A stretch of 64,000 nucleotides of DNA from Candidatus Nanoarchaeia archaeon (GCA_035289605.1 DATDWR010000020.1:10921-74920), one strand, 5' to 3'; positions 5,453 through 24,131 are shown, numbered from the stretch's first letter. The notes: generated from the letters alone by a model not told the origin. Numbers and translations are program-made.

Positions 5453-5547
5453 CTCTTTATTATAATCTACTTAGAATTATTATATATAACACTTTCTAAT
5501 TTTTCAATAAAAAGTATTATAAATTAAGCATTGTGTATAAATATTAT

Positions 5548-5787
5548 GCGGGGATGCCGGAGAACTCACAGAGGTTCGTGCTCCTACAAACTTCGTGTGT
5601 ACGGAGTGGCCAAACGGGCTAGAAGTAAAATTTACTGGCTTAGCTTAGGTTATTTCATAGGTGTTCTGAGCTTAACAGCTATGATATAAAAGACACCTAG
5701 TGGCTTAGTGCCTACGCAGGTTCGAAAGGAATCCTTTTAAAAAAAGCATTCATGGAAAAAGGATTAACGAAAGTCCTGTTCCCCGCA
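5548..5787 (+). tRNA. tRNA gene interrupted by multiple insertions (240 nt; isotype unresolved)
   Basis: The 5' GCGGGGA pairs perfectly with TCCCCGC at 5780-5786, followed by A73. The D-arm pieces GCCGGAG...TGGCCAAACGG are split by ~43 nt. The T arm GCAGG-TTCGAA / T-CCTGT is split by a ~47-nt hairpin-forming insert. Further extra sequence lies in the anticodon/variable region. Confidence 0.7.
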
Positions 5788-5790
5788 TTA
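5777..5790 (+). repeat. candidate attL core TGTTCCCCGCATTA (overlaps tRNA 3' end)
   Basis: Exact 14-mer, also present at 24118-24131 in the same orientation. Confidence 0.6.
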
Positions 5791-5860
5791 ACCCTTCGGG
5801 GTATTGCGTTTTCTGTCCGACAAAAATTTATATGCCAAATCGTCTTAGGAGAAGATAAAC

Positions 5861-7204
5861 ATGGCAGAAAACGACATATACAACAGTCAGGGAAAATATG
5901 AGAAATTTAAGAAAACCCTTAATCTACTAACAATAAAACCAAAAACAGAGAGCACCAGAAAACAATACTATTGCAAAAACAAAGCAAACCTAGAATACTT
6001 CAAAAGAATTTTCGCAGTATTTGAAGCAAAAGATACCAGCTACATAAGAAGACTAAGACTATTACAAACATTCAAGCTAATAAGCTACGCAACAGAAAAA
6101 AATCTAGCAGAATGTGACAGAAATGACATAGGAAAAATTGTAGGATTAATGCACCAGCACTACATAAGCCCAAAAAGCAAACAAGATTTCATAAGAGACC
6201 TAAAATATCTATGGAGAACATTATTCCCCGAAGTAGATGAAAGAGGAAGACCAGACGAAACAATAATGCCCTATGTCGTAAGGCATCTTTCAGCAACAAT
6301 AGACAAAAGTAGAGAGAAACTAAGAAACGACAGACTAACATGGGAAGAATTCGAAAAAATACTAAATTATTTTAATAGCGATACAAGAATGCAAGCTTAC
6401 TTATTTCTAGCTTTAGAAAGTTTAGGAAGACCACAAGAATTATTATACATTAAAGTAAGAGACGTAGAATTATACGACAACTATGCAAAAATCTACATAA
6501 GCGAACATGGAAAGGAAGGAACAGGATTCCTACAATGCATAGACTCATTCCCATACGTAAGCAAATGGTATAACGAACACCCATTCAAGAACAACAAAGA
6601 TACATTATTCTTCATAAACCTAGAAGGATCAACAGGAAGATACGAACAAATCAAGCCCAAAAATATCAATAAAGTATTAAAAACAGCATGCGAAAGACTA
6701 GAAATAAAGAAAAGAATAACTGCTTACAGTCTAAAAAGAAACGGAGTAACCTTCAGAAGACTAAGAGGAGACTCCGATGTTGAAATACAACACGCAGCAA
6801 GATGGACTTCAACTAAACAACTTAAAACATACGACATGAGCAATCAGGAAGACGCATTCAAAATGGAACTCGTAAAAAGAGGAATAATAAATAGCAAAGA
6901 TACAAAATTAGAACATTTAAAGCCAAGAATTAAAATGTGCCTATTCTGCAACACTAATAACAAACTAACAAACGAAGTATGTTCTAATTGTTCGAGACCA
7001 TTAGACCGAGAAAAAATAAGAGAACAAGAAAAGCTGAAGGAAAAATCTTACATTGAATTAAGAGAAGAATTAAATGCTATAAAATCTGAAGAAAATAAGA
7101 AAAGTTTAGAAGTTGTAAACAATTTCTTTCAACATAAAGAAATGCAAGACTTATTAAAAGCAGTTTATAAACTTCAGAAAGAAATGGATTTAATCAAAAG
7201 ATAA
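5861..7204 (+). CDS. tyrosine recombinase / phage-type integrase with C-terminal Zn ribbon
   Basis: Box I-like LESLGRPQELL, box II-like region ...QHAARWTSTKQLKTYD with the terminal catalytic Tyr context, and C-terminal CLFCN...CSNC. The gene starts ~70 nt after the tRNA. Confidence 0.85.
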   Translation: MAENDIYNSQGKYEKFKKTLNLLTIKPKTESTRKQYYCKNKANLEYFKRIFAVFEAKDTSYIRRLRLLQTFKLISYATEKNLAECDRNDIGKIVGLMHQHYISPKSKQDFIRDLKYLWRTLFPEVDERGRPDETIMPYVVRHLSATIDKSREKLRNDRLTWEEFEKILNYFNSDTRMQAYLFLALESLGRPQELLYIKVRDVELYDNYAKIYISEHGKEGTGFLQCIDSFPYVSKWYNEHPFKNNKDTLFFINLEGSTGRYEQIKPKNINKVLKTACERLEIKKRITAYSLKRNGVTFRRLRGDSDVEIQHAARWTSTKQLKTYDMSNQEDAFKMELVKRGIINSKDTKLEHLKPRIKMCLFCNTNNKLTNEVCSNCSRPLDREKIREQEKLKEKSYIELREELNAIKSEENKKSLEVVNNFFQHKEMQDLLKAVYKLQKEMDLIKR

Positions 7205-7372
7205 ATTTTCTTTTCCTTTATTTTTAATAAACCATTTTATAATATCCCGCAGTGTTACTGATAATTCATTATTTCCAGAAATATCTTCTAATTGACTAAA
7301 AGTATTGTTATCTATTCTAAAACTTAATTTTACTTTCTTTCTTTCATCCAACTTTCTATATTTTATAGTCAT
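7190..7372 (-). CDS. small ribbon-helix-helix-like DNA-binding protein (candidate excisionase or regulator)
   Basis: 60 aa with a beta-strand-then-helices pattern (KVKLSFRIDNNTFSQLEDIS...LRDIIKWF). Its start overlaps the stop of an upstream 38-aa ORF (ATGA). Confidence 0.35.
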   Translation of the reverse strand: MTIKYRKLDERKKVKLSFRIDNNTFSQLEDISGNNELSVTLRDIIKWFIKNKGKENLSFD

Positions 7373-7485
7373 TTTTTTAATGCTTGTAATTCAGCCTCAG
7401 CCTCTTCAATAGTCTTCCTAATATTATTCAATAATCTTGAATAGATATCTTCGATATCTTGCTCAGAAAATTTATTTTTACTCAT
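7369..7485 (-). CDS. 38-aa coiled-coil-like small ORF, translationally coupled to the RHH-like gene
   Basis: Own translation: MSKNKFSEQDIEDIYSRLLNNIRKTIEEAEAELQALKK. It is below the ORF-track size cut-off. Confidence 0.2.
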   Translation of the reverse strand: MSKNKFSEQDIEDIYSRLLNNIRKTIEEAEAELQALKK

Positions 7486-7508
7486 TTCTTAATACCTCTT
7501 TTAAGTAA

Positions 7509-7808
7509 TTCATTTTTAATAGACATATTGATAAAGAAGAAATTACAGTAATTATAGATCAAGAGGCTTATGATAAAGATAATGTTATTGAAATAGAGAA
7601 AGACTGGAAAATAATTACTCTAAACATAATATTTCCTATGGATGTTGTTGGAGTTACAGCAAAAATTAGCGGAGCACTAGCAAAAGAAGGAATAAGTATA
7701 ATGCCAATAGCAGCATTTTCCAAAGATCATTTCTTGATCAAAGATAAAGATTTAGATAAGGCAGTAAAAGTTTTAGAAAAAATTGGAGTAAGTGTAAATA
7801 ATAAGTAG
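7509..7808 (+). pseudogene. ACT-domain protein fragment (N-terminally truncated)
   Basis: The frame is open from 7509 with no ATG until 7638. Translation ...WKIITLNIIFPMDVVGVTAKISGALAKEGISIMPIAAFSKDHFLIKDKDLDKAVKVLEKIG looks like the C-terminal half of a small ACT-domain protein. Confidence 0.4.
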
Positions 7809-7814
7809 AAGAGT

Positions 7815-8477
7815 TTATTTTTTTAACTTGCAAATATATCCTATGCCTGCTTTTTTGATTTCTAGCGTTTTTAGTTTTGTTTTTTTGAATATTTCTTGTA
7901 GTTCTTGTTTTGAGAATTGTTCTGATGCGTTTTCTCCTTCTTTCTCTCCAGCAAAAAATACTGTTGTTCCTTTGATTTCTTGTATTGGTGTTTTTATTTT
8001 TTTATATAATTTCATTCTTTCTTCAAAAGCATCTTCGGAATAAACACTTATTATAATAAATCCATTATTTTTGACTACCCTTTTCATTTCTTCCAAAGCT
8101 TTGAACTTATAATTATAGAAGTTTGCAAAAGTCCCAATACACAAAACAAAATCAAAATAATTATCTTCAAATGGTATACTTCTAACGTCAGCCAGTAAAA
8201 ACTTTAGTTCAGGATAAGATTTAAAATTCTCTTTAGCATCTTTAACTGCCTTAGCTTCATTATCTATACCTATTAAATTTTTTGTCTTGTTTAATAATTT
8301 TAGCAATACTCTGCCATTTCCACAACCTACTTCTAGGACTTTTGAATCTTGTGTTATTAGATTATTAAGATATTTTTCTTCTTCATCAAACCATTTCCTG
8401 TAGGACTCTGGCATATCTTTCAGTACTTTTTCCCAAAAAGAAATATTCTTCATTGTCATTATTTTGCTAGTCTCCAT
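7815..8477 (-). CDS. class I SAM-dependent methyltransferase
   Basis: Motif I VLEVGCGNGR plus downstream acidic-loop pattern. It overlaps the upstream TrmB gene by 19 nt. Confidence 0.8.
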   Translation of the reverse strand: METSKIMTMKNISFWEKVLKDMPESYRKWFDEEEKYLNNLITQDSKVLEVGCGNGRVLLKLLNKTKNLIGIDNEAKAVKDAKENFKSYPELKFLLADVRSIPFEDNYFDFVLCIGTFANFYNYKFKALEEMKRVVKNNGFIIISVYSEDAFEERMKLYKKIKTPIQEIKGTTVFFAGEKEGENASEQFSKQELQEIFKKTKLKTLEIKKAGIGYICKLKK

Positions 8478-9199
8478 AGCTCTTCAAAATATCTCTTTTG
8501 GTTTTCTGCCATTTCTTCATCTTCTATCATTACTGCAAATGGCTCTTTAGTCCAAGATTGTAGAACTACTTTATTTCCATAAATTAATGTGGCTGTAGGC
8601 GATTCTAGTTCTATCGGCATAAATTTGTATTCTGTAAGTTTTAATGATTCTGTCCTTGTTTCTACTTTATTTCTGGCTTGTTGTGTGTTGTTATAAAGTA
8701 TTTTCATTACTACTTTTTGTTTTATTCTTTTTTTATGCCATTCCTCCATAAATGCGGGTATTACCTCAAATGATGATCTTGAGCTGCCGTATGCCAAAAA
8801 TTCTTTTACTTTTGATCTTAATATATTGTTCATTACAGTTTTCATTCCCTCTTTTCCTTCAAAGATTTCTACTTTTGGTCTTTTTATTCCTTTTAGTTTA
8901 TGTAATTTTTCAAGTTGAGACATAACTTTATTAATACTCTCTTGTTTTTCTTTTAATATTCTAATTAATTCTTTTGGATCTGCAGCCCGGAAGAATTTTT
9001 TATTGGTCTTTATTGCATAAGAAATCAATCCTAAATCAATTAATCTTTCTAATATATCGTAAACTAATGTTCTTGGAAGATTTGCTTTCAATGATATTTC
9101 GCTTGCTAAAGAATCTCCTAGTTCTAGACATGCTAAATAGGCTTCTGATTCTTTTTTCGATAATCCGAATTTCTCTAAGCTTTCTATTAATTCATTCAT
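8459..9199 (-). CDS. TrmB-family transcriptional regulator (paralog 1)
   Basis: N-terminal wHTH FGLSKKESEAYLACLELGDSLASEISLKANLPRTLVYDILERLIDLGLISY plus a TrmB-type C-terminal domain. Confidence 0.8.
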   Translation of the reverse strand: MNELIESLEKFGLSKKESEAYLACLELGDSLASEISLKANLPRTLVYDILERLIDLGLISYAIKTNKKFFRAADPKELIRILKEKQESINKVMSQLEKLHKLKGIKRPKVEIFEGKEGMKTVMNNILRSKVKEFLAYGSSRSSFEVIPAFMEEWHKKRIKQKVVMKILYNNTQQARNKVETRTESLKLTEYKFMPIELESPTATLIYGNKVVLQSWTKEPFAVMIEDEEMAENQKRYFEELWRLAK

Positions 9200-9201
9200 G
9201 T

Positions 9202-9216
9202 TGTAAATAATTTACA
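9202..9216. promoter_or_regulatory. perfect 7-1-7 palindrome TGTAAATAATTTACA just upstream of TrmB paralog 1 (candidate operator)
   Basis: Read directly, 3 nt from the start codon. It is followed by a TATA-like AAATATTTAAATATTT at 9219-9234. Palindromes are common in AT-rich DNA. Confidence 0.2.
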
Positions 9217-9323
9217 GCAAATATTTAAATATTTCGCTTTAATCTAAATTTTAGGGTGATTAACATATTGAAAGAATACCATATCAGCAAGCGACGGATG
9301 AAAGAGTCAATTATTGGACTGCC

Positions 9324-9926
9324 ATGACGGGTAGGAGATTCCATAAAGAAGTAGATAATACTGCACATGCACGTCTGTTAGAACTAAGAGAGAGGGGTGG
9401 ACTTGGCTCATTATTGTGGTGTTATGACCAAAATGGACGAGAGGGTGAACAGTATAAATGGAACACCGTTGATAGACTTAAAACCACTTATATCATTGCC
9501 CAACAGCTTTTATCTCCAGAAGAAGCAAGAGAAATATTGGATCTTGCAATACATAGTAAAGTTGATTTAACAAGAAGATGGGTTGCAGAATTTAGAAAGA
9601 ATACAAAAAACGGATTATACCAAGTATCAAATGTGAGAACTGGAGATTTAGGCTTAAGAACTCACATGCCTGATCCTCAAACAGGATTTGGTTCTGAGAG
9701 TTATTTTGGTGCATATAGAATAGCTGCTAATGGTGATGATAAACATGGATTAGAGGGATTAACTATGACTGAAATAGAGTACAAAGATGAAGATGGAAGA
9801 GATATCCTCAACTATGTTTCTGCTTCTGAGGAATGGACTCCTAAAGAGAGAACGTTAAGAGAATTTGTAGAAAGAATGGTATCTATTCCTTGCAAAACTT
9901 TCATGCTTGGACTTCCTAGATATTAA
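9324..9926 (+). CDS. hypothetical protein (compositionally atypical: R/G/E/W-rich)
   Basis: 200-aa ORF with no recognisable motif. By eye it is more GC-rich than its neighbours. Confidence 0.5.
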   Translation: MTGRRFHKEVDNTAHARLLELRERGGLGSLLWCYDQNGREGEQYKWNTVDRLKTTYIIAQQLLSPEEAREILDLAIHSKVDLTRRWVAEFRKNTKNGLYQVSNVRTGDLGLRTHMPDPQTGFGSESYFGAYRIAANGDDKHGLEGLTMTEIEYKDEDGRDILNYVSASEEWTPKERTLREFVERMVSIPCKTFMLGLPRY

Positions 9927-10675
9927 ATCTTAACCATGTTCCATATCTTATTAAAAAATTCCCTATAACTCTTAGCAGTTTGTGGGGAAATTATCTCAAC
10001 TGCAAATGTATCTGGATAGGCAGTTTCTATTATTATCCTATTTTTTCCTATTGTTATTCCTTGATTTAGTGTTAACTCATGGAATTTTATTTTGTATTCT
10101 TTTTTTGATGGAAAATGTTTTTTGAATACTTCTCTTAATTCAGGCAAAGCAATCCCTCTGGCAGTAACACCTCTTGCATCCCTTTTTGCATGTATGCTCT
10201 TGAACATTAATTGGACATATTTATTCTGTAAAGCATCTTTTTCAACTGAAAAGAAAACATATTCTTCTCCTTTATTTAATTCATTAATCAAGTTCATATG
10301 TGCTGTTTTTAGTCCCAGCAGTCCTCTGTAGATATTTGCGCTTTCTTCAACATACTTTTTTAAAGATTTTTTTATTGAGTCTATTAATTCCTTTGTATGT
10401 TCTTCTGCTTCTTCCAATTTCTTTTTTTCATCCTTGATAAAATCCAGCAGATTCTCAGGATCAGCTAGATGAAATTCCTTAATGTTATTTTTTACAATAT
10501 AGTTTACTAAGCCCTTGTTTGTTAGTTTATCCAAAATTAAATATACCTTAGAACTAGACACTCCTGAATTTTCTATTATTTTAGTTATTGTACTTTTCCT
10601 TAATTTTATTAAAGATTCATACACTTTTATTTCGCCTTCTGTAAACCCTATTTCTTTTAATTTATTCAAATCCAT
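9923..10675 (-). CDS. TrmB-family transcriptional regulator (paralog 2)
   Basis: IGFTEGEIKVYESLIKLRKSTITKIIENSGVSSSKVYLILDKLTNKGLVNY wHTH. Same length class and C-terminal pattern as paralogs 1 and 3. Confidence 0.8.
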   Translation of the reverse strand: MDLNKLKEIGFTEGEIKVYESLIKLRKSTITKIIENSGVSSSKVYLILDKLTNKGLVNYIVKNNIKEFHLADPENLLDFIKDEKKKLEEAEEHTKELIDSIKKSLKKYVEESANIYRGLLGLKTAHMNLINELNKGEEYVFFSVEKDALQNKYVQLMFKSIHAKRDARGVTARGIALPELREVFKKHFPSKKEYKIKFHELTLNQGITIGKNRIIIETAYPDTFAVEIISPQTAKSYREFFNKIWNMVKI

Positions 10676-10731
10676 TATCTCACTAAGGGGGAGAATACAT
10701 ATATAATACTTTCGATTGTCATTTAACAGTT

Positions 10732-11358
10732 ATGAAAAGAACAAATTGGGATCAGTTAGCTGAAGAATATGCAAGTAGGGACTTTCCGGAAAGAGATTGG
10801 AATTTTGGTTATGAAAATGTTTTAAACCTATTAAGAAAAATTGCTGGGGAAAAAATATTGGATTATGGCTGTGGTTCTGGAAAATTTTCAAGAGTTCTTG
10901 CTGAAAGAGGAGCGCAGGTTTTAGGAATAGATACTAACGAAACAATGTTAGATTTAGCAAGAAGACAAGATTGTAAAAACATATATTATGGATTACCAGA
11001 GGATATTTCAAGTTTAGGCTATTTTGATGGAGCCGTTCTTAATTATGTTATTTGTGGCATGAGAGATGATATAGAAGTAAAAGAGGTTTTAAGAGGCATT
11101 TATACACAATTAAAACTAAACGGTTTACTTATTGTTCTTGATCCGCATCCTGCAACAAGAACCATTAGAACTGATGGAGAACCAAATGAAGTAGTTTTAG
11201 AAGGCATGACGAAACCAGTATTAGACTATTGGCGCCCAGTAGATAAATATATTTCTATTGTTTCTAGGGTAGGATTTACAATAGATAATGTTCTCGAGCC
11301 GAAAAATGAAGAGGGCATTCCTCAAATGCTTATAATAAAAGGAAAGAAAAATGTATAA
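10732..11358 (+). CDS. class I SAM-dependent methyltransferase
   Basis: Motif I ILDYGCGSGKFS. It is divergent from TrmB paralog 2 and overlaps the next gene by 8 nt. Confidence 0.8.
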   Translation: MKRTNWDQLAEEYASRDFPERDWNFGYENVLNLLRKIAGEKILDYGCGSGKFSRVLAERGAQVLGIDTNETMLDLARRQDCKNIYYGLPEDISSLGYFDGAVLNYVICGMRDDIEVKEVLRGIYTQLKLNGLLIVLDPHPATRTIRTDGEPNEVVLEGMTKPVLDYWRPVDKYISIVSRVGFTIDNVLEPKNEEGIPQMLIIKGKKNV

Positions 11359-12073
11359 AAATCATTTTCCGTTTGGAATACAAGTTTATGGAGAAACTAT
11401 AGGCGAAATTTGGATAGATATCATTGAAGCAGTAATCAAAGAAGGAAAAAACTGTTTTGATGAAGGTAGAAAAAGAAAAGCCTTAGAAAATGTTCGATTT
11501 AAGTCAAATACTCAAATAATGCCGGATGAATTAATATTAAAATATGGGGATGAAGAAAACCTTAATTCTATGTTAGATCTTACTTTTAAAGAACCAAAAA
11601 TGTTTGATTGTGATATTACTCCAAGTTTTAGTTCCGGAGCAAAAAGTTATTATCAAAGAATAAAAGAAGGGAAATTAATTGAATATGTAATAAAACGTTT
11701 AAGTCAAATCCCTGAGAGTAAAAAAGCAGTAATAGTATTCCCCAATTATGATGATTATCAACAAGTTCTAAATAATATGAAAGACGATTATTTACCCTGC
11801 TTAATTTCTATACAATTTCGCTTAGTTAAGTCAGATGATAAAAATCATATTCTAAATGCAACTTGTAATTTTAGATCATTAGACATCTTACAAAAAGGAC
11901 ATGGAAATTTATATTCTATAGCAATGATGAGCAAGATTATTGCAGAAGAATTATCTAAAAATTTGAAAACCAATGTGGATGTAGGATTCTTAGATGCCAT
12001 GATAACAGATGTGCATATTTATGAAAATACAATTGAAGAAGCGAATAAAATTTTAAATCCTATAAACAAATAA
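11351..12073 (+). CDS. thymidylate synthase (ThyA)-fold pyrimidine C5-modifying enzyme
   Basis: Motifs align to ThyA: DDYLPCLISIQF (catalytic Cys context PC..QF), NFRSLDILQKGHGNLYS (RS.D..G..N) and DVHIYENT (D.H.Y.N). Confidence 0.6.
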   Translation: MYKNHFPFGIQVYGETIGEIWIDIIEAVIKEGKNCFDEGRKRKALENVRFKSNTQIMPDELILKYGDEENLNSMLDLTFKEPKMFDCDITPSFSSGAKSYYQRIKEGKLIEYVIKRLSQIPESKKAVIVFPNYDDYQQVLNNMKDDYLPCLISIQFRLVKSDDKNHILNATCNFRSLDILQKGHGNLYSIAMMSKIIAEELSKNLKTNVDVGFLDAMITDVHIYENTIEEANKILNPINK

Positions 12074-12086
12074 AGCTATAAATAAG

Positions 12087-12110
12087 AAACACGGAAAGAT
12101 CTCCATGTTT
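12087..12110. terminator. imperfect hairpin between convergent genes (AAACACGGA-AAGATC-TCCATGTTT)
   Basis: 8 of 9 bp stem read by eye, followed by a T-run. It sits between the ThyA-like (+) and VirB4-like (-) stops. Confidence 0.2.
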
Positions 12111-12183
12111 TAGCTTTTTAAGGCTTATAAGTTGAAAGGGACACGGAAAAACCAGCCCTAAATATATCTATATTTTTGTCCGC

Positions 12184-15324: not shown

Positions 15325-15338
15325 TAGAAATCAATAAA

Positions 15339-16037: not shown

Positions 16038-16719
16038 TTTTCCCGTACATTATTATTCTATTTATATACATGAAAGGAATATCTATAACTGCAACAACCC
16101 ATTTGATTACGATTGTCCCTATAATTATCGGAAGTAAGGGTTGAACACCATAGAATGCTATTGAAGCAAAGATTACGCTATCTAACGCCATTGAAGGGAT
16201 AGAACTTAAAGCATTCCTTGCCCATAAATGTTTTCCATTTGTCAGTTTTTTAAATAATGCAAAAATGTAAGCATCAGCATTTTCACTAATTAAGAAAGCG
16301 CACCAACTTGCCAAGATAATTCTTGGAACAAAACCAAAGATTTTCTGAAATATTTCTTGATTATTCCAAAAAGGAGCTGGAGGCAGACTTATAGCAATCC
16401 AAATAAAGAAGGTTACAGCTATTTGTGTTATAAAAGCTATAAAAATCATCTTCTGAGTTTCTTTTCTTCCAAACCTCTCATTTACTATATCTGTTAACAA
16501 AAATGTAAGAGAAAAAACTATGACTGGAGAACCTGTATAAAACGTGACAAATCCAAAATCAAACGCTGCAATCTTAAAAGCAATAATATTACTGATTAAA
16601 ACAAAAGACACATACAAACCAATCAATGCATCAGGAGTGTTATATTTTTTAACATACCAAGAGCCAAAGAATGTAAAAGCACTTACAACCAAAATCCATA
16701 AAATTATAATTAATAACAT
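16021..16719 (-). CDS. YhhQ/VUT-family (queuosine-precursor type) transporter
   Basis: ~6 TM, 232 aa, with LLTDIVNERFGRKETQKMIF and ENADAYIF / ALDSVIF patterns as I recall for the DUF165/YhhQ family. Confidence 0.55.
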   Translation of the reverse strand: MLLIIILWILVVSAFTFFGSWYVKKYNTPDALIGLYVSFVLISNIIAFKIAAFDFGFVTFYTGSPVIVFSLTFLLTDIVNERFGRKETQKMIFIAFITQIAVTFFIWIAISLPPAPFWNNQEIFQKIFGFVPRIILASWCAFLISENADAYIFALFKKLTNGKHLWARNALSSIPSMALDSVIFASIAFYGVQPLLPIIIGTIVIKWVVAVIDIPFMYINRIIMYGKSAKIQ

Positions 16720-16788
16720 TAGTTTTTTAACACTCCAATCTAAAGATTAATACAAAATATTTAAATAATAGTTCTCCCACTTAGGAGT

Positions 16789-17526
16789 ATGGCAATAGAA
16801 GATTTAAAGTTCTTAGACTTGACAGATAATGAAATAAGGGTATATTTAGCCATTCTAAAAAATGGGAAACTTACTGGCACTAAGATAAAACAAATAACCA
16901 GTATAGCCAACTCAAGAGTTTATTCAGCAATAGATTCACTAATATCAAAAGGAATAATTATTTATGAAAAACACCAAAAAGGAAGATTATACGCAGCTAT
17001 TAATCCTGAAATATTAAAAGAATTAATGAAAGAAAGAATGGAAAAAATAGAAAAAACCATACCAATACTAAAAGAATTACAGAGTAATGAAAAAACTGAA
17101 ACAGAAAGTGCAGTATTTGAAGGACTACAAGGATTTAGAACAGCATTAATAAAGTTGGCAAACGAGTGTCCAATAGGAGAAACAATACATATCATAGGAT
17201 TTTCAAATCAAAACTACAAAAATGAAAAACTGGCAGCAATATTAAACACTGTAAACAAAATATCAATGAAAAGAAAACACAAATTCAAAATGATACTGGA
17301 TGACGAAGAAAATAAATTCTTCGAAAAAAGAAAAAAGGAAGGATTATCAGAAATAAGATTCATGGGAAACAACTTCAAAAGTCCAGCAGCAATAGACATA
17401 TTCCAAGACTATGTATACATATTACTATGGGATGAAAACCCCTATGCATTTATAATAAAAAACAAAAACATAGCAGAAGGATTCAAAATATACTTCAACT
17501 TCCTATGGAACATGGCAAAAAAGTAA
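16789..17526 (+). CDS. TrmB-family transcriptional regulator (paralog 3)
   Basis: LDLTDNEIRVYLAILKNGKLTGTKIKQITSIANSRVYSAIDSLISKGIIIY wHTH. It is divergent from the transporter-methyltransferase pair. Confidence 0.8.
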   Translation: MAIEDLKFLDLTDNEIRVYLAILKNGKLTGTKIKQITSIANSRVYSAIDSLISKGIIIYEKHQKGRLYAAINPEILKELMKERMEKIEKTIPILKELQSNEKTETESAVFEGLQGFRTALIKLANECPIGETIHIIGFSNQNYKNEKLAAILNTVNKISMKRKHKFKMILDDEENKFFEKRKKEGLSEIRFMGNNFKSPAAIDIFQDYVYILLWDENPYAFIIKNKNIAEGFKIYFNFLWNMAKK

Positions 17527-18435
17527 TTAAACTCCTCCAGCAGCCATCATAATTCCTGTTTTTATTTCAGAATAGACTTCTCCCATTCCTGATTTGTTAA
17601 TTATGAACTTAATCAGTAATAAGAATACTAAGTCTACAAGCAAAAAACTAACAATGTAAAATATTATTGTAAAGTGTTCTACTATTGGAGCAGTAACAAG
17701 CAAACTACAACCTAAAATTATTATAGAACAAATAAAAGGAATAAAAATAAGCATAACAATCAAGTTAATTATAAGCTTGCCATAACTTCTAAGGAAATGA
17801 ACAAAATAAAGAAATATTCCTATAGGAAAGAATATCACTCCAAGACTAACAAAAACCCATCTGGCTAATAAAAAAATACAAGTAATAATCAAGACTAACA
17901 CATAAGGAATAATCATCAAAATCTGCAATAAAGCATTACCAAAACTATCACTAGTAACAGTAAAAAAAGAAGGACTAACATTACTAAAAACATAACCAGT
18001 CAAGCTAGAATTTAATTCAATTAGTAAATTGTATAAATAAAAACTAGAACTAACCAAAACCAAAGCAATAATCATGTTCTTTATTGATTCTTTAGCATGA
18101 TGTCTTTTAACTATATCTTCACTGTTCAAAATAAAAACACTACCTGAATACAAAAGAAAGAAGATATAGAATACACTAATAATCCCAATAATAGTAAACC
18201 AGGCACTCTCAAAAACACCAGTATTGGGAATAGTAGTCATCAAGTCAACAACCCAACTAATAAAAGGCTGAGCAGCTAATCCTGTAGTATGAGAAACTAT
18301 TCTTGCTACATCACCAAGACAACTCAAAAGAGAGAAAAAAGAACAACCAGAATCATTACTATCTGAAGAATCAGCTAAAGACATAGGCAAGACTAAAAGA
18401 AGAACTACAAATAAAGTTAGAAGTTTAGATTTCAT
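17527..18435 (-). CDS. polytopic membrane protein with signal peptide (VirB6/TrbL/CedA-like candidate)
   Basis: Signal peptide, a short Ser/Asp/Cys-rich ectodomain, then ~6-7 TM helices. The assignment rests on topology and context only. Confidence 0.4.
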   Translation of the reverse strand: MKSKLLTLFVVLLLVLPMSLADSSDSNDSGCSFFSLLSCLGDVARIVSHTTGLAAQPFISWVVDLMTTIPNTGVFESAWFTIIGIISVFYIFFLLYSGSVFILNSEDIVKRHHAKESIKNMIIALVLVSSSFYLYNLLIELNSSLTGYVFSNVSPSFFTVTSDSFGNALLQILMIIPYVLVLIITCIFLLARWVFVSLGVIFFPIGIFLYFVHFLRSYGKLIINLIVMLIFIPFICSIIILGCSLLVTAPIVEHFTIIFYIVSFLLVDLVFLLLIKFIINKSGMGEVYSEIKTGIMMAAGGV

Positions 18436-18575
18436 TTTTAGAAAGAAAATTTATTTTATAATAATCATTAGAATTTTCAGGCACAAACCAAATGGTTTTT
18501 GCATTTTCCTAATACTTTGATCTAGATTAAAGTTATAGTTAATTATTTAAACTAGAATAAACCTAAAATCTTGAT

Positions 18576-18779
18576 ATGAAAAATAAAGTCATCATTTTTG
18601 TTATTTTGTTGATAATATTGAGTTTGTTTTTGTTCGGTTGTAATGATAAATTTGAAAATCCTGAATGTCAAAATGATCTAGATTGTAAAGATATGGGTGC
18701 TCTAGGTGGTCAATGTATAAATAATCATTGTCAACTAAACCCTGAACCTACATCACCACCAGCCTTACCGGAGGAATAA
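18576..18779 (+). CDS. small secreted Cys-rich protein (lipobox-like LFGC)
   Basis: Signal peptide ending LFLFGC, then 6 Cys in 40 aa and a Pro-rich tail. Confidence 0.5.
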   Translation: MKNKVIIFVILLIILSLFLFGCNDKFENPECQNDLDCKDMGALGGQCINNHCQLNPEPTSPPALPEE

Positions 18780-18782
18780 AAT

Positions 18783-19481
18783 ATGAAAAAAATAATCGCT
18801 CTAATTTTAGTATTAATAATTTCTAGTTTGTCAGTTTTAGCAATAATTAATGGAATGACTCCTGGAGATAGGCTAGGAGATAAAACAAAGTATGAGATAG
18901 GTGTAAAAGTTGAGAAAGGTTGGAACTTATTAGTCGCAGCAACTCCAGACTTAATATCACAAGACAGGATTTATGGCGGAGGAGACATAAAAAAGGAGAA
19001 TATAAAGATGATTTATGTATTTAATCCGTTTATTCAGCAGTATGCAAGAGTATTCCCAAATCCAGAACAGGAAAAAATTCATAAATTAGTGGAATCGTTT
19101 CCTCAAGACTCTGACTTATTAGCTAATTCTGCATGGGTTTACAGCGACAAAGCAGGATATTTAAGATTTAGACCTGATGAATACTTACTGGATTTAGAAG
19201 ATAGAAAATTAGTTCTTGGGTGGAATTTTGTGGGAATTACTCCAGAATTTACAGGTAAAAAATTCAAAGAAATGACAGGAAACTGCATTATAGAAAAGGC
19301 TTACGTATATGTCTACCAGGATGGGACAAACCCTCACTGGGAAAAGATAGTGCAAGAAAAAGATTCTTTAATACCCAAAGAATTCGAAGGAATGGGAATG
19401 GTTGTAAAAGTAAAGGGCGAACCATGTAGTATGGGTGGAATGAAAACTGCAGAAAATACAGTGCCATCATTACCTGCTTAA
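18783..19481 (+). CDS. hypothetical secreted protein
   Basis: Signal peptide MKKIIALILVLIISSLSVLA; 232 aa. Confidence 0.5.
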   Translation: MKKIIALILVLIISSLSVLAIINGMTPGDRLGDKTKYEIGVKVEKGWNLLVAATPDLISQDRIYGGGDIKKENIKMIYVFNPFIQQYARVFPNPEQEKIHKLVESFPQDSDLLANSAWVYSDKAGYLRFRPDEYLLDLEDRKLVLGWNFVGITPEFTGKKFKEMTGNCIIEKAYVYVYQDGTNPHWEKIVQEKDSLIPKEFEGMGMVVKVKGEPCSMGGMKTAENTVPSLPA

Positions 19482-19486
19482 AAATT

Positions 19487-19999
19487 ATGAAAACTAAAAC
19501 CCTAATAATAACTGTAGTTGTAATAATTTTTATTTTAATTGCAGTTCTTGCTACAGCCTATCTAAAACCCTATTATGATTACAATCAGGATAAGAAAAAA
19601 GCATACGATAAAACAAAAACCTATCCCTCAGTTTTAGACTTTAAAGAAATTACAATAAGTGAAATTAATAATAAAAATTTAACTGGAAATTTTAATGTTG
19701 AAGCCTTTGTAATACAAAAATTTGTTTGTGCACCATGTTCACCTTATATGTTCTGTAAAATATGTAAACCTGATGGAATATTAATTTCAGAAAATTTAAT
19801 TCAAAAAGGAGACTATATTCAATTAAATAAAGAAAGAATAAAACTATTAGATTTAGAAACAACAAACCCCAACCAATTTGAAATCGGGCAAAAGTATAAA
19901 TTCTCAATAGAAATAATTGAAAAAGAAAAAGTCTATAGTGATAAAGAAAGAATAGTATTAAAATTAATAAGATTATTAGGATATGAAAAATTAATTTAA
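19487..19999 (+). CDS. hypothetical N-terminally anchored protein
   Basis: Single N-terminal TM; contains a CxxC...CxxC cluster (CAPCSPYMFCKIC). Confidence 0.5.
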   Translation: MKTKTLIITVVVIIFILIAVLATAYLKPYYDYNQDKKKAYDKTKTYPSVLDFKEITISEINNKNLTGNFNVEAFVIQKFVCAPCSPYMFCKICKPDGILISENLIQKGDYIQLNKERIKLLDLETTNPNQFEIGQKYKFSIEIIEKEKVYSDKERIVLKLIRLLGYEKLI

Positions 20000-21181
20000 A
20001 CTTCTCACAACAAAATGCTTAATTATTCTATAAACCAAATACAAGATAAATAATAGCGCAATTAGTTTTAGTATCCATGTTAAGTCATAATTGAATTCTC
20101 TTACTTGATAATTGCTTACAGTGTTATTCTCTAAATTAATGTTTAAGTTACAATCATGATTAAGATTATAAAAATGATTAAACAATATTAGTTTACAGTT
20201 ATTAATATTTTTAACATATAAACTGTTGTCTGTTCCTGCAATTAAGTTATCAGTTTTCTTAATGTTTACTTTGTCAGCTTTCAAAACTGCAATATAAAAT
20301 GGTTTTTTAGTAAATTCTACTGAGTATATATATTTTTGTTCTTTATAGTAAGAATTGTCAAACTTTATTATCAAACTTGAATAGTCTTTTGCTTCATAGT
20401 TTAACTTTATTGTATTAAAATTGTTTTCTACTGCTTTAATGCTAGCGCTTGGTTTATTATCATAATACTTTACATTAATACTGTCATTTAATTCTATATT
20501 ATCTTTAAGATATTCTTTATTCTTGTACTCACACTTGTAATTGTAACTCGTGCACTGCCCTCTTCTGTTCCTATTAGTGCAATACTTATTCCATACACTA
20601 TTATCTTTCTTAATATTAACACTAACTTCTAATTTAGTGGTTATTAATGAATCCTGATTTACACTTATAGCTTGTACTTTATTACTTCCTTGCACCTGAT
20701 TATTAACTAAAATGCTTAATTTAGAATTGTTTTCTATTAACTCATAAGTTATCTTACAATAACCATTACTGTTTTCTTGATAATTATTGGCTTGATAATC
20801 TTGTGGGACTATAACTTTATAATAATAATCACTTAACACTAAAGAATTACTAGTGACGTATAAATTATTATTTTCTAAAACACTAGGACTTATAGCATTC
20901 AAAGAAACCCAAGCAGACTTAATATAAATAGAGTCTACTACTAATAAATTTTCCAGACTAGAATTAACTTTAATATTAGAGTTATAATTTAGAATGAAAT
21001 CATGATTAGGGAAACTAGAATAATTATAAAACAAACCTGAAAGTAAGAAATATTTTTGGGATTCATTCATTGAAGAACTTAATATATTATTGCACTGTTG
21101 CAAGTTAGAAGCTAAAGAACAATCAAAAGAAGCAGAAGCTAAAGGAAGAATTACTAAGAAAATTAAGAGAAAATATTTCAT
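19991..21181 (-). CDS. Asn/Ser-rich secreted protein with C-terminal TM anchor
   Basis: Signal peptide and a C-terminal helix (WILKLIALLFILYLVYRII) followed by basic residues; 396 aa. Confidence 0.55.
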   Translation of the reverse strand: MKYFLLIFLVILPLASASFDCSLASNLQQCNNILSSSMNESQKYFLLSGLFYNYSSFPNHDFILNYNSNIKVNSSLENLLVVDSIYIKSAWVSLNAISPSVLENNNLYVTSNSLVLSDYYYKVIVPQDYQANNYQENSNGYCKITYELIENNSKLSILVNNQVQGSNKVQAISVNQDSLITTKLEVSVNIKKDNSVWNKYCTNRNRRGQCTSYNYKCEYKNKEYLKDNIELNDSINVKYYDNKPSASIKAVENNFNTIKLNYEAKDYSSLIIKFDNSYYKEQKYIYSVEFTKKPFYIAVLKADKVNIKKTDNLIAGTDNSLYVKNINNCKLILFNHFYNLNHDCNLNINLENNTVSNYQVREFNYDLTWILKLIALLFILYLVYRIIKHFVVRSLN

Positions 21182-21203
21182 TAGAAGAAGATTTCTGGTG
21201 ATT

Positions 21204-21932
21204 TTACTTTTGCTTTAGAAATTCGCTTACTTCTCTTGCTTTTCTCATTAAATTATCTAAATCCATAGAGTTTAATGTTTGCCAATACATTGGATGGTGA
21301 TTTATATAAAAAATTTCTCTATTTTCACATGTTGCTACCATAAGTCTGATTGGAACTATTCCAGGCGGAGAATTACAATGATATTCATTATACGGGCTAA
21401 CTATTTCTCCTAAGTGATGTCTTAAACTCGCAAATTCATTTGGTCTTCCTTTTGATTTGTTCACATCTACTACCATAGCAATCATAGGAGACCTTATCGC
21501 ATAAGACCTACTTCCATCTCCATTTAAATAGGCATATCCTTGTGAACCATATATAACAATTCTTCCTAAATCTTTGTTTATTTCAGAAAGTGGATGATAT
21601 CTCAATCCAGTAAGCTCAATTAATCCATCAATACCTTCAGATTCTCCTACTTTTAGGCTTTCTTTAATGCTTTTTCTTATGAACTTTTCTGATAATTCAT
21701 CTGAATCCATTGCATCTTGGCGTTCTTCTTCAAAGGTTGGTTGTCCTCTCCTCATTGCTACGCTTAATCCTTCTGGTGAAGAAAAGAAAACCCCTGTATG
21801 TTGAAGAGTAGTTTGCATACTTAAGATACCCCTAACATCTTTATGACCTTTAAGATAGCGAACAATCTGGATATAAGATTCTGTATGCTCCCTGTTATAA
21901 GCTTCCTTTTTGTCAGTTTTTCTTATTAGCAT
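21204..21932 (-). CDS. hypothetical protein (compositionally atypical)
   Basis: 242-aa ORF, richer in G/R/H/P than its neighbours, with no motif recognised. Confidence 0.5.
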   Translation of the reverse strand: MLIRKTDKKEAYNREHTESYIQIVRYLKGHKDVRGILSMQTTLQHTGVFFSSPEGLSVAMRRGQPTFEEERQDAMDSDELSEKFIRKSIKESLKVGESEGIDGLIELTGLRYHPLSEINKDLGRIVIYGSQGYAYLNGDGSRSYAIRSPMIAMVVDVNKSKGRPNEFASLRHHLGEIVSPYNEYHCNSPPGIVPIRLMVATCENREIFYINHHPMYWQTLNSMDLDNLMRKAREVSEFLKQK

Positions 21933-22018
21933 TAAATGCTTAAATTTATATTATTAATAAATATTATTATATAATTATACACAAAAACGATAAATATATA
22001 AATATTAATATATTTTAT

Positions 22019-23005
22019 GTGTATATGAAGGAATTAGACCTTAAAGACTATAAAATTTTGTATGAACTAGATGTTAATGCCAGACAAAATGATTCTGAAA
22101 TAGCCAAAAAAGTAGGCTTAACAAGAGACTCAACCAGATACAGAATAAACAAATTAGTCGAAGAAGGTTATATCTATTATTTTATGACACTAATTAATTC
22201 AATGAAATTAGGTTACAATTGGTATAGGACATTTTTCAAATTTCAAAACTTAACAATTGAGAAAGAAAAAGAAATTATTGATTATCTAAAAGAAAAAACA
22301 AGCTGGATTTCCAAAGTAGAAGGATTTTGGGATCTAAACACAGGAATTTTTCTCGAAAACGTTTATGAGTACCGTGATTTTATTAATGAATTTTTATTGA
22401 AATATAGTTTATTCATCGAAAGATACAATGTTTCTATTGTTACAAGAGAATGGATTTACTGCCATGATTATCTTCTTAATAAAAAACAAAAGACCAACAA
22501 ACCAATTTTAATGGGATTTAATAATAAAAGTGAATATAAAGCAGAGAATATAGATAAAATGGATTATAAAATTCTCAAAACAATACTGAAAAATGCCAGA
22601 ATGAAAAGTATCGATATAGCAAGAGAAATAGGAACAACAGAAATAGTTATTAGATATCGTATCAAAAAGTTAATACAAAAAGGAATAATAATAGGATTCA
22701 AGCCATTTCTTAATATCAATAAACTTGGTTATACCTATTTTAAGCTTCATATAACATTACAAAATTTAACTAAAGAAAAAAAGAACTCTATTATAAATAA
22801 TATTCACCAACATCCCAACACAATCCACATGACAGAACTAGTGGGTGGTGCTGATATAGAATGCGAGTTTCAAGTAAAGACTAACGAAGAATTTTATCAA
22901 CATATACAAGAATTAAGAACAAAATTCAGTGATATTATAAGAGATTACAAATTTATGCAGTATACTAAAGAGTACAAATTTACTTATCTTCCTGAAATTT
23001 TTTAA
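22019..23005 (+). CDS. tandem double Lrp/AsnC-type HTH regulator
   Basis: Two repeats of the pattern D.KIL..L..NAR....IA...G.....YRI.KL...G.I (aa ~6-55 and ~180-230). The likely ATG is at 22025. Confidence 0.65.
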   Translation: MYMKELDLKDYKILYELDVNARQNDSEIAKKVGLTRDSTRYRINKLVEEGYIYYFMTLINSMKLGYNWYRTFFKFQNLTIEKEKEIIDYLKEKTSWISKVEGFWDLNTGIFLENVYEYRDFINEFLLKYSLFIERYNVSIVTREWIYCHDYLLNKKQKTNKPILMGFNNKSEYKAENIDKMDYKILKTILKNARMKSIDIAREIGTTEIVIRYRIKKLIQKGIIIGFKPFLNINKLGYTYFKLHITLQNLTKEKKNSIINNIHQHPNTIHMTELVGGADIECEFQVKTNEEFYQHIQELRTKFSDIIRDYKFMQYTKEYKFTYLPEIF

Positions 23006-23132
23006 AAAAATTATTCCTTTCTAGTCACTATACCTTCGCTATATTTGTGAAGAGAACAGTTATAGTTCCTTCTAGCTCAAGCGGTACAGTCACACACGTT
23101 ATAAAAAAGTCCAAAGAATAAACAAGGGACTT

Positions 23133-23468
23133 TTATGTTGTCAAATAATTGACTATTATTGGTGCTACCCAGATTAATCCTAGACCTATTACTATGTACA
23201 TTACTTTTGTTTTAGCTTGTTCTTTTTCTGAAGGATTATTGTTCATGAACATCTGAACAGCTGCAAATACTATAAACAGTAAAGCTAAGACACTAGCAGC
23301 ATACTTTACAAAATTATAGACTTTCATTACAGGTGCTAATATCTGGTTGAATGTGTTAACATCTGTTGAGCTTGGCCCTGTTATTGTTACAGCATGAACA
23401 CTATAGGCTAAAGGCAATACCATTAGTATTAGTGCTATTGTGCAGTTAAGCAGGTTGTTTTTCTTCAT
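23133..23468 (-). CDS. VirB2/TrbC/CedA1-like pilin candidate
   Basis: 111 aa with a signal peptide ending VHA. Two hydrophobic helices (AASVLALLFIVFAAVQMF and VMYIVIGLGLIWVAPIIV) are separated by a short charged loop. This is the conjugative-pilin topology. Confidence 0.5.
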   Translation of the reverse strand: MKKNNLLNCTIALILMVLPLAYSVHAVTITGPSSTDVNTFNQILAPVMKVYNFVKYAASVLALLFIVFAAVQMFMNNNPSEKEQAKTKVMYIVIGLGLIWVAPIIVNYLTT

Positions 23469-23757
23469 TATTATTCACCTCCACGAACATTTTTCTAAAG
23501 CCTTCAAACTCGTCTTTAGGCATTAGAGTTTCACTACTGCCAGCATTCTCAACTTTAGGAGTGATTTTACCATGAACTTTTTTCTTAACAAGCAAGAACT
23601 TAACTGTCAAGAACACCAGCAGTAAAAGTGCTCCAATACCCAAAAATATGAAAAAAGTCTCTAAATCCAACTTGAACAGTAAACTAACAGTTATGCTTAA
23701 CGGAAGATACAATATCCAAAACATGAAATAATAAGCTATTAGTTTGCTAGTTTTCAT
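23446..23757 (-). CDS. small 2-3 TM membrane protein
   Basis: The likely start MKTSKLIAYYF at 23757 overlaps the stop of the upstream Zn-ribbon ORF. The ORF track extends it to 23787. Confidence 0.4.
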   Translation of the reverse strand: MKTSKLIAYYFMFWILYLPLSITVSLLFKLDLETFFIFLGIGALLLLVFLTVKFLLVKKKVHGKITPKVENAGSSETLMPKDEFEGFRKMFVEVNNNEEKQPA

Positions 23758-23923
23758 ATTTGCCTCCTTTCTTGTAAGCTTTGACAATTCTAGCTACTTT
23801 TTTCACGCTTCCATACTTTGATAATAAAAAATCAAAACAAGTCTTGCACAAAGTAAACCTGTCAAGTATAATGCTAAAATTTCCTGACTCTCTTTTGCAT
23901 AATTTGCACATTTTTGTTTTCAT
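23747..23923 (-). CDS. 58-aa zinc-ribbon protein
   Basis: Own translation: MKTKMCKLCKRESGNFSIILDRFTLCKTCFDFLLSKYGSVKKVARIVKAYKKGGKYEN (CxxC...CxxC). It is below the ORF-track cut-off. Confidence 0.35.
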   Translation of the reverse strand: MKTKMCKLCKRESGNFSIILDRFTLCKTCFDFLLSKYGSVKKVARIVKAYKKGGKYEN

Positions 23924-24117
23924 AAAAGTAAATTGGCATAGAGAAATATAAATGTCCTTAACAATTTTGGAGCAAAAATGGAGTCAACAGCGTTGCAACT
24001 AGAATGTAGCAAGACACTTTAGAAAGATATTTAAAGAAAATTCAACCTATAATTATATTAAAAAATTAGACGATTTACTTTTCAGGCGATAACGCTATAC
24101 ACCGGCGGGCTTTTGCA

Positions 24118-24131
24118 TGTTCCCCGCATTA
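24118..24131 (+). repeat. candidate attR core TGTTCCCCGCATTA
   Basis: Exact copy of 5777-5790. Its last 3 nt are the stop codon (complement) of the 248-aa membrane-protein gene. Confidence 0.6.

Follow-up and report, generated by a model that had tools for sequence, protein, structure and literature searches.

Integrated elements of the conjugation type have been documented in Sulfolobales and Nitrososphaeria (PMC9905601, PMC6563490). Thaumarchaeal integrative and conjugative elements (ICEs; Krupovic et al. 2019, PMC6563490; Nitrosocaldus ICEs, PMC5797428) are archaeal islands bounded by attachment-site (att) direct repeats, with boundaries validated by comparison of related genomes. Besides a tyrosine integrase they encode VirB4 and proteins that resemble VirB6, VirB3 and pilins, and a relaxase is not recognisable in them. 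The same combination occurs in a 64,000 nt stretch of DNA (hereafter the window) from a Candidatus Nanoarchaeia archaeon (GCA_035289605.1, DATDWR010000020.1:10921-74920), in which positions 5791-24131 are very probably an integrated mobile element of a Woesearchaeota chromosome that carries genes of a type IV secretion system (T4SS). The host is a tiny groundwater archaeon of the Woesearchaeota/Nanoarchaeota (DPANN), and the window is 99.5-100% identical to groundwater metagenome contigs. In the literature we found no description of an integrated conjugation-type element in Woesearchaeota or other DPANN lineages.

We are highly confident that the interval arose by integrase-mediated insertion at a tRNA-Leu site. 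An initial annotation of the window had read the locus as an attL-int...attR arrangement, and this reading is supported by the repeat, the tRNA, an intact integrase gene (int), relatives that lack the island, and homologous integrases that also adjoin tRNA genes. Three features of a tRNA-targeting element were found, namely a tyrosine recombinase, att repeats at a tRNA end and absence of the island from the orthologous site.

The att repeats and the target tRNA

Two exact copies of the 14-mer TGTTCCCCGCATTA lie in the window, both on the + strand, at 5777-5790 and 24118-24131, as the initial annotation had described for a perfect repeat covering the last 11 nt of a tRNA plus 3 nt. It had also raised the possibility of a common motif; these two copies are the only ones in the window, and no third appears with up to 2 mismatches allowed. 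Nor does any longer or degenerate repeat extend beyond the 14-nt core. The left copy, the attL core, runs from the final 3 nt of the T-stem through the 3' acceptor strand (7 nt) and the discriminator to the third trailer nucleotide, and is thereby confined to the 14-nt terminal exon and trailer of tRNA-Leu(UAG). The last 3 nt of the right copy, the attR core, are the stop codon (TAA, - strand) of R248, the first gene of the right flank. Counting one core copy, the integrated interval (5791-24131) measures 18,341 bp.

The tRNA-Leu(UAG) gene occupies 5548-5787 (+) and is interrupted by four introns, located in the D-loop (5563-5606), the anticodon stem (5623-5642), after position 38 (5651-5695) and in the T-loop (5727-5773), which leaves exons at 5548-5562, 5607-5622, 5643-5650, 5696-5726 and 5774-5787, with exon-intron junctions ambiguous by 1-3 nt. 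Because of these four introns neither ARAGORN nor Rfam (gathering threshold; also E<=10) calls a tRNA at the raw locus. Their removal in silico yields an 84-nt class II tRNA-Leu(UAG) that ARAGORN accepts, and the exons match the syntenic tRNA-Leu(UAG) genes of relatives column for column; those orthologues are uninterrupted or less interrupted, and the intron-free ones (in loci L037, L041 and L045) are called by ARAGORN directly. A minimum-free-energy fold of the 240-nt precursor has its acceptor stem closed. The tRNA placed at the left repeat by the initial annotation is thus, as judged by in-silico splicing and orthologue alignment, a real gene. Its invisibility to ARAGORN and Rfam means that standard tools which look for islands at annotated tRNAs would overlook this element and similar ones.

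Synteny of the insertion site

Gene order in the left flank is Cdc6-TFIIB-S8e-LSm-L37e, confirming the core housekeeping genes (S8e, LSm, L37e) named initially. To the right lies an operon on the - strand (24129-33992) that encodes the polytopic membrane protein R248 and the secreted proteins R480, R1884 and R676, all named for their lengths in amino acids. With TFIIB as synteny probe we compared the 80 closest TFIIB loci in GTDB genomes (the retrieved loci and contigs bear labels such as L004, L018 and L022); the 117-aa gene adjoining the tRNA, used as an alternative probe, had no relatives in GTDB genomes. In 16 related species the homologues of R676, R1884, R480 and R248 are oriented as in the window and are separated from S8e by 1.7-8.1 kb, as against 19.7 kb in the window. 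In six of these loci (L018, L019, L022, L037, L041, L045) tRNA-Leu(UAG) is found between L37e and the operon, followed by no more than one or two genes. Homologues of the island's VirB4, pilin, o302 and o396 genes are absent from all 80 related loci, as is int except for a 33-aa remnant in L019. These relatives are other species, not strains, with S8e at most 67% identical at the amino acid level.

Because the relatives join both flanks without the island, the synteny break falls between the tRNA 3' end and the R248 stop codon, the very codon that the second copy of the 14-mer overlaps. The gene-content discontinuity proposed as a check therefore coincides exactly with both repeat copies. An exact repeat at an independently defined boundary is not credibly a matter of chance. 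A repeat that arose by chance beside a tRNA, in an ordinary variable region of the chromosome, would be in keeping with a core of only 14 bp and a modest compositional contrast, and is nevertheless very improbable: once base composition is allowed for, 8.8e-5 matches to that 14-mer are expected in 58 kb of a single strand (4e-3 for any 14-mer out of a 46-nt probe round the tRNA end), first-order Markov simulations yielded such a match in 0 of 300 runs, and the integrase family is found recurrently at tRNA 3' ends with short tRNA-end repeats.

The comparison also bears on the extent of the element, which could in principle run through the operon at 24129-33992, or as far as the intron-bearing tRNAs at 35.3-38.1 kb, with 24118-24131 then an internal sequence. 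That operon shares its strand with the pilin genes, its products are a polytopic membrane protein and giant secreted proteins with no Pfam match, and the DNA at 24-26 kb and 34-38 kb is AT-rich. Against this, homologues of the operon stand beside S8e/TFB in the 16 species, where integrase and T4SS are absent, and no downstream copy of the tRNA end was found, even with 2 mismatches allowed. Because the secreted-protein operon is ancestral at the locus, an element of this larger size is excluded as far as the operon is concerned, and we regard the larger extent in general as highly unlikely.

The same tRNA-Leu site appears to have been used before. In L019 a 33-codon N-terminal integrase remnant (L019:7968-8066, -) lies right after the orthologous tRNA-Leu (L019:8181-8335, -), followed by ~3.4 kb of unrelated open reading frames (ORFs) and no second copy of the tRNA end, which indicates an earlier element that has since decayed.

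Nucleotide composition agrees with insertion and is not diagnostic of it. The element has a GC content of 29.3% and the remainder of the window one of 32.9% (Mann-Whitney p = 3e-4, 1-kb windows), and tetranucleotide distance is raised in the 12-24 kb part of the element. The compositional check called for by the initial annotation thus gave a significant drop in GC, and no sharp discontinuity at the right edge.

The integrase, its relatives and a model of integration

The integrase gene (5861-7204, +; 447 aa, intact) starts 73 nt past the end of the tRNA, in line with the tyrosine recombinase predicted ~70 nt after it, and its product matches PF00589 (E 1.2e-10) and phrog_1 (integrase). In an alignment of 12 sequences (this integrase and 11 homologues) residues R190, K218, R293, H311, W315 and Y324 are invariant, as is a C-terminal CxxC...CxxC zinc-ribbon-like motif (C360, C363, C374, C377); the homologues are 410-469 aa long. 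Relatives number in the hundreds, the best 120 being at least 52% identical, and those with names are mostly from Nanoarchaeota/Woesearchaeota. An index-free search gave 81 representative clusters at E<=1e-30; the family is put at ~80 clusters at 50% identity. Integrases annotated in plasmids and viruses reach only ~23% identity; tblastn against PLSDB returned only haloarchaeal integrases (23-24%), and no relative was found in IMG/VR.

In 6 of 8 integrase contexts, the window included, the gene lies directly downstream of a tRNA: tRNA-Leu(UAG) in the window, tRNA-Glu in L097, tRNA-Gly in L099 and L106, and tRNA-Leu in L100 and L108. The five homologues outside the window are 56-65% identical to its integrase. 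Two of these loci are informative about whole elements. In L100 the last 11 nt of the tRNA are repeated 9.36 kb downstream, ahead of an unrelated transporter gene, and none of 100 shuffles produced such a second copy. In L097 a 65%-identical integrase beside tRNA-Glu is linked to o113, pilin, o302 and VirB4 genes.

Three further observations concern these contexts. The attR-like 11-nt repeat of L100 is at 19281-19291, and ~90 nt beyond it lies a degenerate tRNA 3' end, TTCCCCGCATTTATATT (~19385-19400), which may have been left by a previous element at this tRNA-Leu(UAA). In L097 a tRNA ligase gene (RtcB) and two Archease genes (L097:6550-9358) are directly upstream of two intron-bearing tRNAs, one of unassigned type at 9440-9565 and the tRNA-Glu that is the integration site of the L097 element. 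The homologous integrase of L105 stands head to head with a second integrase (8538-9773, -, and 10001-11344, +), with an RT-16 RNA (Rfam RF03019, 92 bits; L105:4425-4604) ~4 kb off, then a reverse-transcriptase ORF (5350-6333); upstream of the L105 integrase no complete tRNA was recognised.

Reconstructed junctions of the window element (attB containing ACGAAAGTCCTGTTCCCCGCATTACATTTTAGAAACTT, attP containing GGCGGGCTTTTGCATGTTCCCCGCATTAACCCTTCGGGGTAT) allow its att arms to be described. Alignment of the tRNA-int spacers and a search of the reconstructed attP for inverted repeats point to an element-side arm between the core and int (5804-5845, +). It comprises a box, TTGCGTTTTCTGTCCGACA (5804-5822, +), kept upstream of homologous integrases, a TATA-like sequence, AAATTTATAT (5824-5833, +), and AAATCGTCT (5837-5845, +), 46 nt inside attL. 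The last of these has an inverted partner, AGACGATTT (24068-24076, +), 41 nt inside attR, and in attP the resulting 9-bp inverted repeat AGACGATTT/AAATCGTCT flanks the core at 41 and 46 nt. An analogous 8-bp inverted pair lies 18 and 14 nt from the core in the L100 element. A box of the form (A)ATGCGT...TGTCTGACA, then a TATA-like element, is kept in the tRNA-int spacer of several members of the integrase family. The inverted repeat and the box with its TATA-like element are weak candidates for integrase arm sites and an int promoter.

In the mechanism that we envisage, the integrase would act on two identical 14-bp sequences, the core of attP on a circular form and its match at the 3' end of the tRNA (attB), and recombine them. 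Since 11 nt of the core are the tRNA's own final nucleotides, the tRNA gene would be rebuilt at attL and would stay functional, and int would be left whole; because int is not split, the arrangement is that of pNOB8-type or bacterial elements, unlike the SSV type. Excision to a circle would be followed by transfer or uptake via the T4SS and by re-integration at tRNA-Leu. This, the life cycle of an integrative element of the conjugation type, is the one we consider most likely.

Type IV secretion genes

Gene families were sought with Pfam, NCBIfam and PHROGs among ORFs of at least 70 aa within 5791-24117. The conjugation-like genes of the initial annotation are confirmed; the set includes VirB4, a VirB2 pilin and a TrbL/VirB6-like protein. 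The VirB4-type T4SS ATPase (12184-15324, -; 1046 aa) has an N-terminal PrgI/VirB3-like membrane segment, with a transmembrane (TM)-like stretch at residues 43-72, and matches PF19044 (E 4.9e-28), PF01935, PF12846 and PF12666, as well as VirB4 of PDB entry 4AG5 (E 5e-32). Its matches to the NCBIfam ICE ATPases CD1110 and Mbov_0397 are strong (E ~1e-86) and fall under the curated equivalog cut-offs (scores of 292.6 vs 590 and 289.6 vs 325, respectively). The VirB2/TrbC-type T4SS pilin (23133-23468, -; 111 aa) matches PF18895 (E 7e-15) and PF04956; it is accompanied by o113 (23446-23787, -; 113 aa), a two-TM pilin partner kept beside the pilin in L097. A TrbL/VirB6-like polytopic membrane protein, o302 (17527-18435, -; 302 aa), is a candidate for the mating channel: it has ~6-7 TM-like segments, it is kept with VirB4 in L097, L101 and L104, and PF19590 (TrbL_3) matches weakly both o302 and its 58%-identical homologue beside VirB4 in L101/L102. 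Pairwise similarity of pilin and VirB6-like protein was not significant. Finally o396 (19991-21181, -; 396 aa), secreted and C-terminally anchored as judged from hydropathy, is conserved together with T4SS genes (tblastn to L101/L104).

Pilin, o302, o113 and o396 are thus found together with VirB4 in other Woesearchaeota loci (L097, L101, L104). The T4SS gene set of the island is a minimal one of monoderm type, composed of a VirB3-VirB4 fusion, a VirB2 pilin and its partner, a TrbL/VirB6-like protein and an anchored surface protein.

An integrated provirus might be suspected from an integrase beside a tRNA and from an ATPase that matches a PHROG named 'terminase large subunit'. This ATPase is VirB4, matched there through its P-loop, and apart from the integrase nothing else in the island matched PHROGs; no capsid, portal, tail or other virion family was detected in the PHROGs or Pfam scans, IMG/VR yielded no relative of the integrase, and the only similarity found among phage records was to integrases of ~23% identity. 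We consider a provirus exceedingly improbable.

Related genomes show that the T4SS module occupies different loci. The metagenome-assembled genome of L022 (JAGVZG01), in which the tRNA-Leu site is empty, has a 68%-identical VirB4 together with pilin, o396 and o302 homologues on another contig (L101), where they lie among restriction-modification genes.

Mobility of the island and role of its T4SS

Several observations weigh against the interpretation of 5791-24131 as an integrated, T4SS-bearing mobile element, or temper it. The core is short at 14 bp. The compositional contrast is modest and is equalled at 28-32 kb and 36-40 kb of the window, and the right edge is blurred, the DNA at 24-26 kb being AT-rich too. 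In the relatives one or two genes separate the R248 homologue from the tRNA, and an ancestral attB in which the R248 stop codon abutted the tRNA is something we infer from them, not something observed. Every same-population contig that gives a context for int and R248 carries the island with both junctions and identical sequence, and for that reason these contigs are uninformative about insertion. The exact attB junction had 0 matches among JGI metagenome contigs, and the exact attP (circle) junction had 0 matches in IMG/VR and JGI metagenome contigs. Of the two junction checks suggested by the initial annotation, the one for an empty site accordingly succeeded in part, with an island-free arrangement in related species and no exact join of the tRNA to position 24132 in JGI contigs, and the one for a circular form gave no match in either set of assembled contigs.

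Gene content adds to these points. No coupling protein (VirD4/TraG) family was found with Pfam or NCBIfam, the sole trace being a sub-threshold TrwB_AAD_bind match inside VirB4 itself, and neither a relaxase nor a replication protein was found with Pfam, NCBIfam or PHROGs. VirB4-type genes are widespread in Woesearchaeota and lack an integrase within 10 kb in 3 of 5 contexts (L101, L103, L104), around which no tRNA was called within 10 kb (Rfam, gathering threshold). The T4SS may be a host system carried as cargo.

Of the features of an ICE, integration and mating-pair-formation genes with VirB4 were found, a coupling protein and a relaxase were not, and for this reason we name the island an integrated conjugation-type element and not a proven ICE; 'conjugative' is in this sense an inference. 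The missing relaxase is uninformative, being likewise absent from conjugative plasmids of archaea and from thaumarchaeal ICEs (PMC6563490). The missing VirD4 is a real difference from both. That the element is still self-transmissible is possible and on balance doubtful; current mobility and true conjugation are unproven, since no empty-site or circle junction was found in assembled contigs and every population contig retrieved carries the island.

These same observations feed the most serious alternative, a fixed and domesticated island that entered at tRNA-Leu, is now immobile, and has a T4SS that serves the cell in DNA import or host contact. It shares its origin with the preferred explanation and differs on present function alone. 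The uniform population contigs, the missing attB and attP junctions and the lack of coupling protein and relaxase all speak for it, as does the fact that VirB4 homologues of ~1000 aa are very common in Woesearchaeota/Nanoarchaeota and can stand apart from any integrase. There are precedents as well: the Ced and Ted systems are built solely from homologues of VirB2, VirB6 and VirB4 (PMC9905601), and most T4SS of Patescibacteria lack a relaxase (PMC12102498). Set against domestication are an integrase of full length with all family-invariant residues, two identical cores, and the fact that lack of a relaxase is also the rule for archaeal conjugative plasmids and thaumarchaeal ICEs (PMC6563490). 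Moreover, the tRNA-Glu integrase of L097 is linked to the same T4SS genes and the T4SS of the L022 genome lies at another locus, which together fit a T4SS that travels with the element. We give the domesticated island appreciable weight, short of favouring it. By analogy with what has been proposed for Ced/Ted and Patescibacteria, the T4SS may now mainly serve the cell, for DNA uptake or cell-cell contact, a role that we judge nearly as probable as not.

Other genes of the island and its right flank

Downstream of int are small ORFs (7190-7808), of 60 aa (7190-7372, -) and 38 aa (7369-7485, -), and a gene for a 56-aa ACT-domain protein (7638-7808, +). Pfam and NCBIfam identify an S-adenosylmethionine-dependent methyltransferase (SAM-MTase; 7815-8477, -), a TrmB regulator (8459-9199, -), a second TrmB regulator (9923-10675, -), a second SAM-MTase (10732-11358, +) and a 240-aa thymidylate-synthase-like (ThyA-like) protein (11351-12073, +); o200 (9324-9926, +), a 200-aa protein without assigned function, lies between the first two regulators. 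Beyond VirB4 come a third SAM-MTase (15339-16037, -), a transporter of the Vut_1 vitamin/queuosine-precursor type (16021-16719, -) and a third TrmB regulator (16789-17526, +). Beyond o302 are two proteins each with an N-terminal hydrophobic segment (18783-19481, +, and 19487-19999, +; hydropathy), and beyond o396 the 242-aa ORFan o242 (21204-21932, -), for which no homologue was found in a collection of 5.8 billion proteins. Single-sequence AlphaFold models of o242 and o200, both cytoplasmic, reach a mean-confidence pLDDT of only 33 and 38. A 328-aa double winged-helix regulator of HTH_24/AsnC type (22019-23005, +) precedes the pilin genes, and a 58-aa CxxC...CxxC ORF with no Pfam match (23747-23923, -) lies just inside attR.

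The three methyltransferases of the initial annotation are confirmed (SAM-MTase, Pfam) and are class I enzymes of small-molecule type. Of its five transcription regulators four are supported, the three TrmB proteins and the double HTH_24 protein. PADLOC returned generic methyltransferase, helix-turn-helix and P-loop domain matches only, which we do not read as a defence system. The 58-aa CxxC...CxxC ORF is kept in all contigs of the population; it is pure speculation to name it a candidate small DNA-binding or directionality factor.

One contig from the same sample departs from the window. Read leftwards from window position 30075, L007 is 99.6% identical as far as 22464 and then diverges, the break at ~22464 falling inside the HTH regulator gene (22019-23005). 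Beyond the break lies an 8.3-kb cluster (L007:7589-15924) encoding a carbamoyltransferase, two GT2 glycosyltransferases, a methyltransferase, an epimerase and QueC, with no match among the other loci retrieved. The variant is either alternative island cargo or a mis-join.

The right-flank operon was considered as part of the element and ruled out by its synteny in relatives. No protein of it has a Pfam match, and it is kept beside S8e/TFB in many Woesearchaeota. Common to R480 and R1884 is a motif rich in cysteine, CITGxxCxGxYCCGxGxLYCC (at 25838-25900 and 26335-26397 of the window). The operon may be a cell-surface or host-contact system.

Introns of tRNA genes and att sites

Of 7 tRNAs that adjoin an integrase, 4 have a T-arm intron (window, L019, L097, L099), as against none among 5 tRNA-Leu orthologues that have no integrase. 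A motif, GCRTTCAYGGAAA, is common to the T-arm introns of tRNA-Leu in the window (5746-5758), tRNA-Leu in L019 (8212-8224, -) and tRNA-Glu in L097 (9890-9902). All tRNAs with introns that bear it adjoin an integrase or integrase remnant, and a fourth copy is intergenic (L042:4739-4751). This suggests a spreading family of introns, possibly linked to att sites.

Randau and Söll reportedly proposed a model that links tRNA gene disruption with integration. Sugahara et al. (PMC3293823) also model the link between tRNA introns and integration. By analogy, a T-arm intron directly 5' of the core could arise from integration, select against it or lock it in. These considerations must be tempered by the small counts behind them and by the tRNA gene at window 35340-35434, which has a T-arm insertion and no integrase near. 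The broadest proposal that could be built on them, a DPANN-specific integrase family, each cluster with the C-terminal zinc-ribbon-like motif, that moves a relaxase-less minimal T4SS and cargo among Woesearchaeota tRNA 3' ends, with att sites tied to tRNA disruption, is in our judgement unlikely as it stands, and so is a functional link of T-arm introns to the att sites of this family.

Other tRNA genes of the window are interrupted too: the one at 35340-35434 (-) by ~22 nt between T-stem and T-loop, one at 37973-38112 (-) by ~68 nt in the anticodon region and one at 43511-43598 (-) by ~21 nt in the D-loop. Only the last of the three is found by ARAGORN, labelled tRNA-Tyr(ata), probably a mis-call due to the insertion. 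It seems that tRNA genes in this genome are, as a rule, heavily interrupted. The target tRNA itself has a variant within the population: L004:3596-3856 (ANAN16 scaffold_2674) corresponds to the tRNA locus at window 5540-5800 with identical outer exons and introns, and differs over ~70 nt round the anticodon, where GCTAAGGAG replaces GCTTAGGTT and the intron is shorter. The anticodon would change; the segment could be allelic, could stem from gene conversion by a different tRNA-Leu gene, or could be a chimera of the assembly.

Significance and comparison with known systems

The island is a cleanly delimited example, with exact att cores, integrase, cargo and flanks. It points to a sizeable uncharacterised family of integrases that target tRNA 3' ends, and it shows that VirB4/VirB2/VirB6-like machinery, very common in these ultra-small archaea, can sit on mobile DNA. 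It thereby bears on gene exchange by genome-reduced symbionts and on what their T4SS does, be it export, import or attachment alone.

Beside the likeness to thaumarchaeal ICEs set out at the beginning there are clear differences. Those elements have a median size of 64 kb, and most have a VirD4/TraG partner ATPase, TFIIB and ParB (PMC6563490; PMC5797428), whereas the island measures 18.3 kb, is without VirD4, resides in a DPANN host and has an integrase ~23% identical to annotated ones. With pNOB8-type (type II) elements and Sulfolobus conjugative plasmids it shares the tRNA target, an int that is intact after integration, and conjugation genes without a relaxase. Sulfolobus conjugative systems, however, have both TraG and TrbE ATPases, and the island integrase has a family-specific C-terminal zinc-ribbon-like motif; it resembles pNOB8-type integrases in layout, and no link at the sequence level was found with tblastn against PLSDB. 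SSV-type (type I) elements differ as well: their attP lies inside int and integration splits the gene, whereas here int is one 447-aa ORF with the core 71 nt upstream of its start codon.

As to the secretion genes, the DNA import systems Ced (Sulfolobales) and Ted (Thermoproteales) also comprise a VirB2-like pilin and VirB6-like and VirB4-like proteins, with no coupling protein or relaxase (PMC9905601), but they are described as domesticated chromosomal systems, whereas the genes of the island are inside an integrase-bounded interval and its pilin and VirB4 match bacterial monoderm ICE families directly. The best profile matches of ATPase and pilin are in fact to the T4SS of such bacterial ICEs (CD1110 and Mbov_0397 VirB4; the mycoplasma ICE pilin Mbov_0395), from which the island differs in scoring below equivalog cut-offs, in its archaeal host and in the fusion of a VirB3-like segment to the ATPase. 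As with the relaxase-poor T4SS of Patescibacteria, for which contact with the host cell is discussed (PMC12102498), the organism that harbours the island is ultra-small and probably episymbiotic, and VirB4 is very common in its lineage. Insertion at a tRNA end by an integrase-bearing island is of the classic kind, encountered here in a lineage for which the literature yielded no earlier account.

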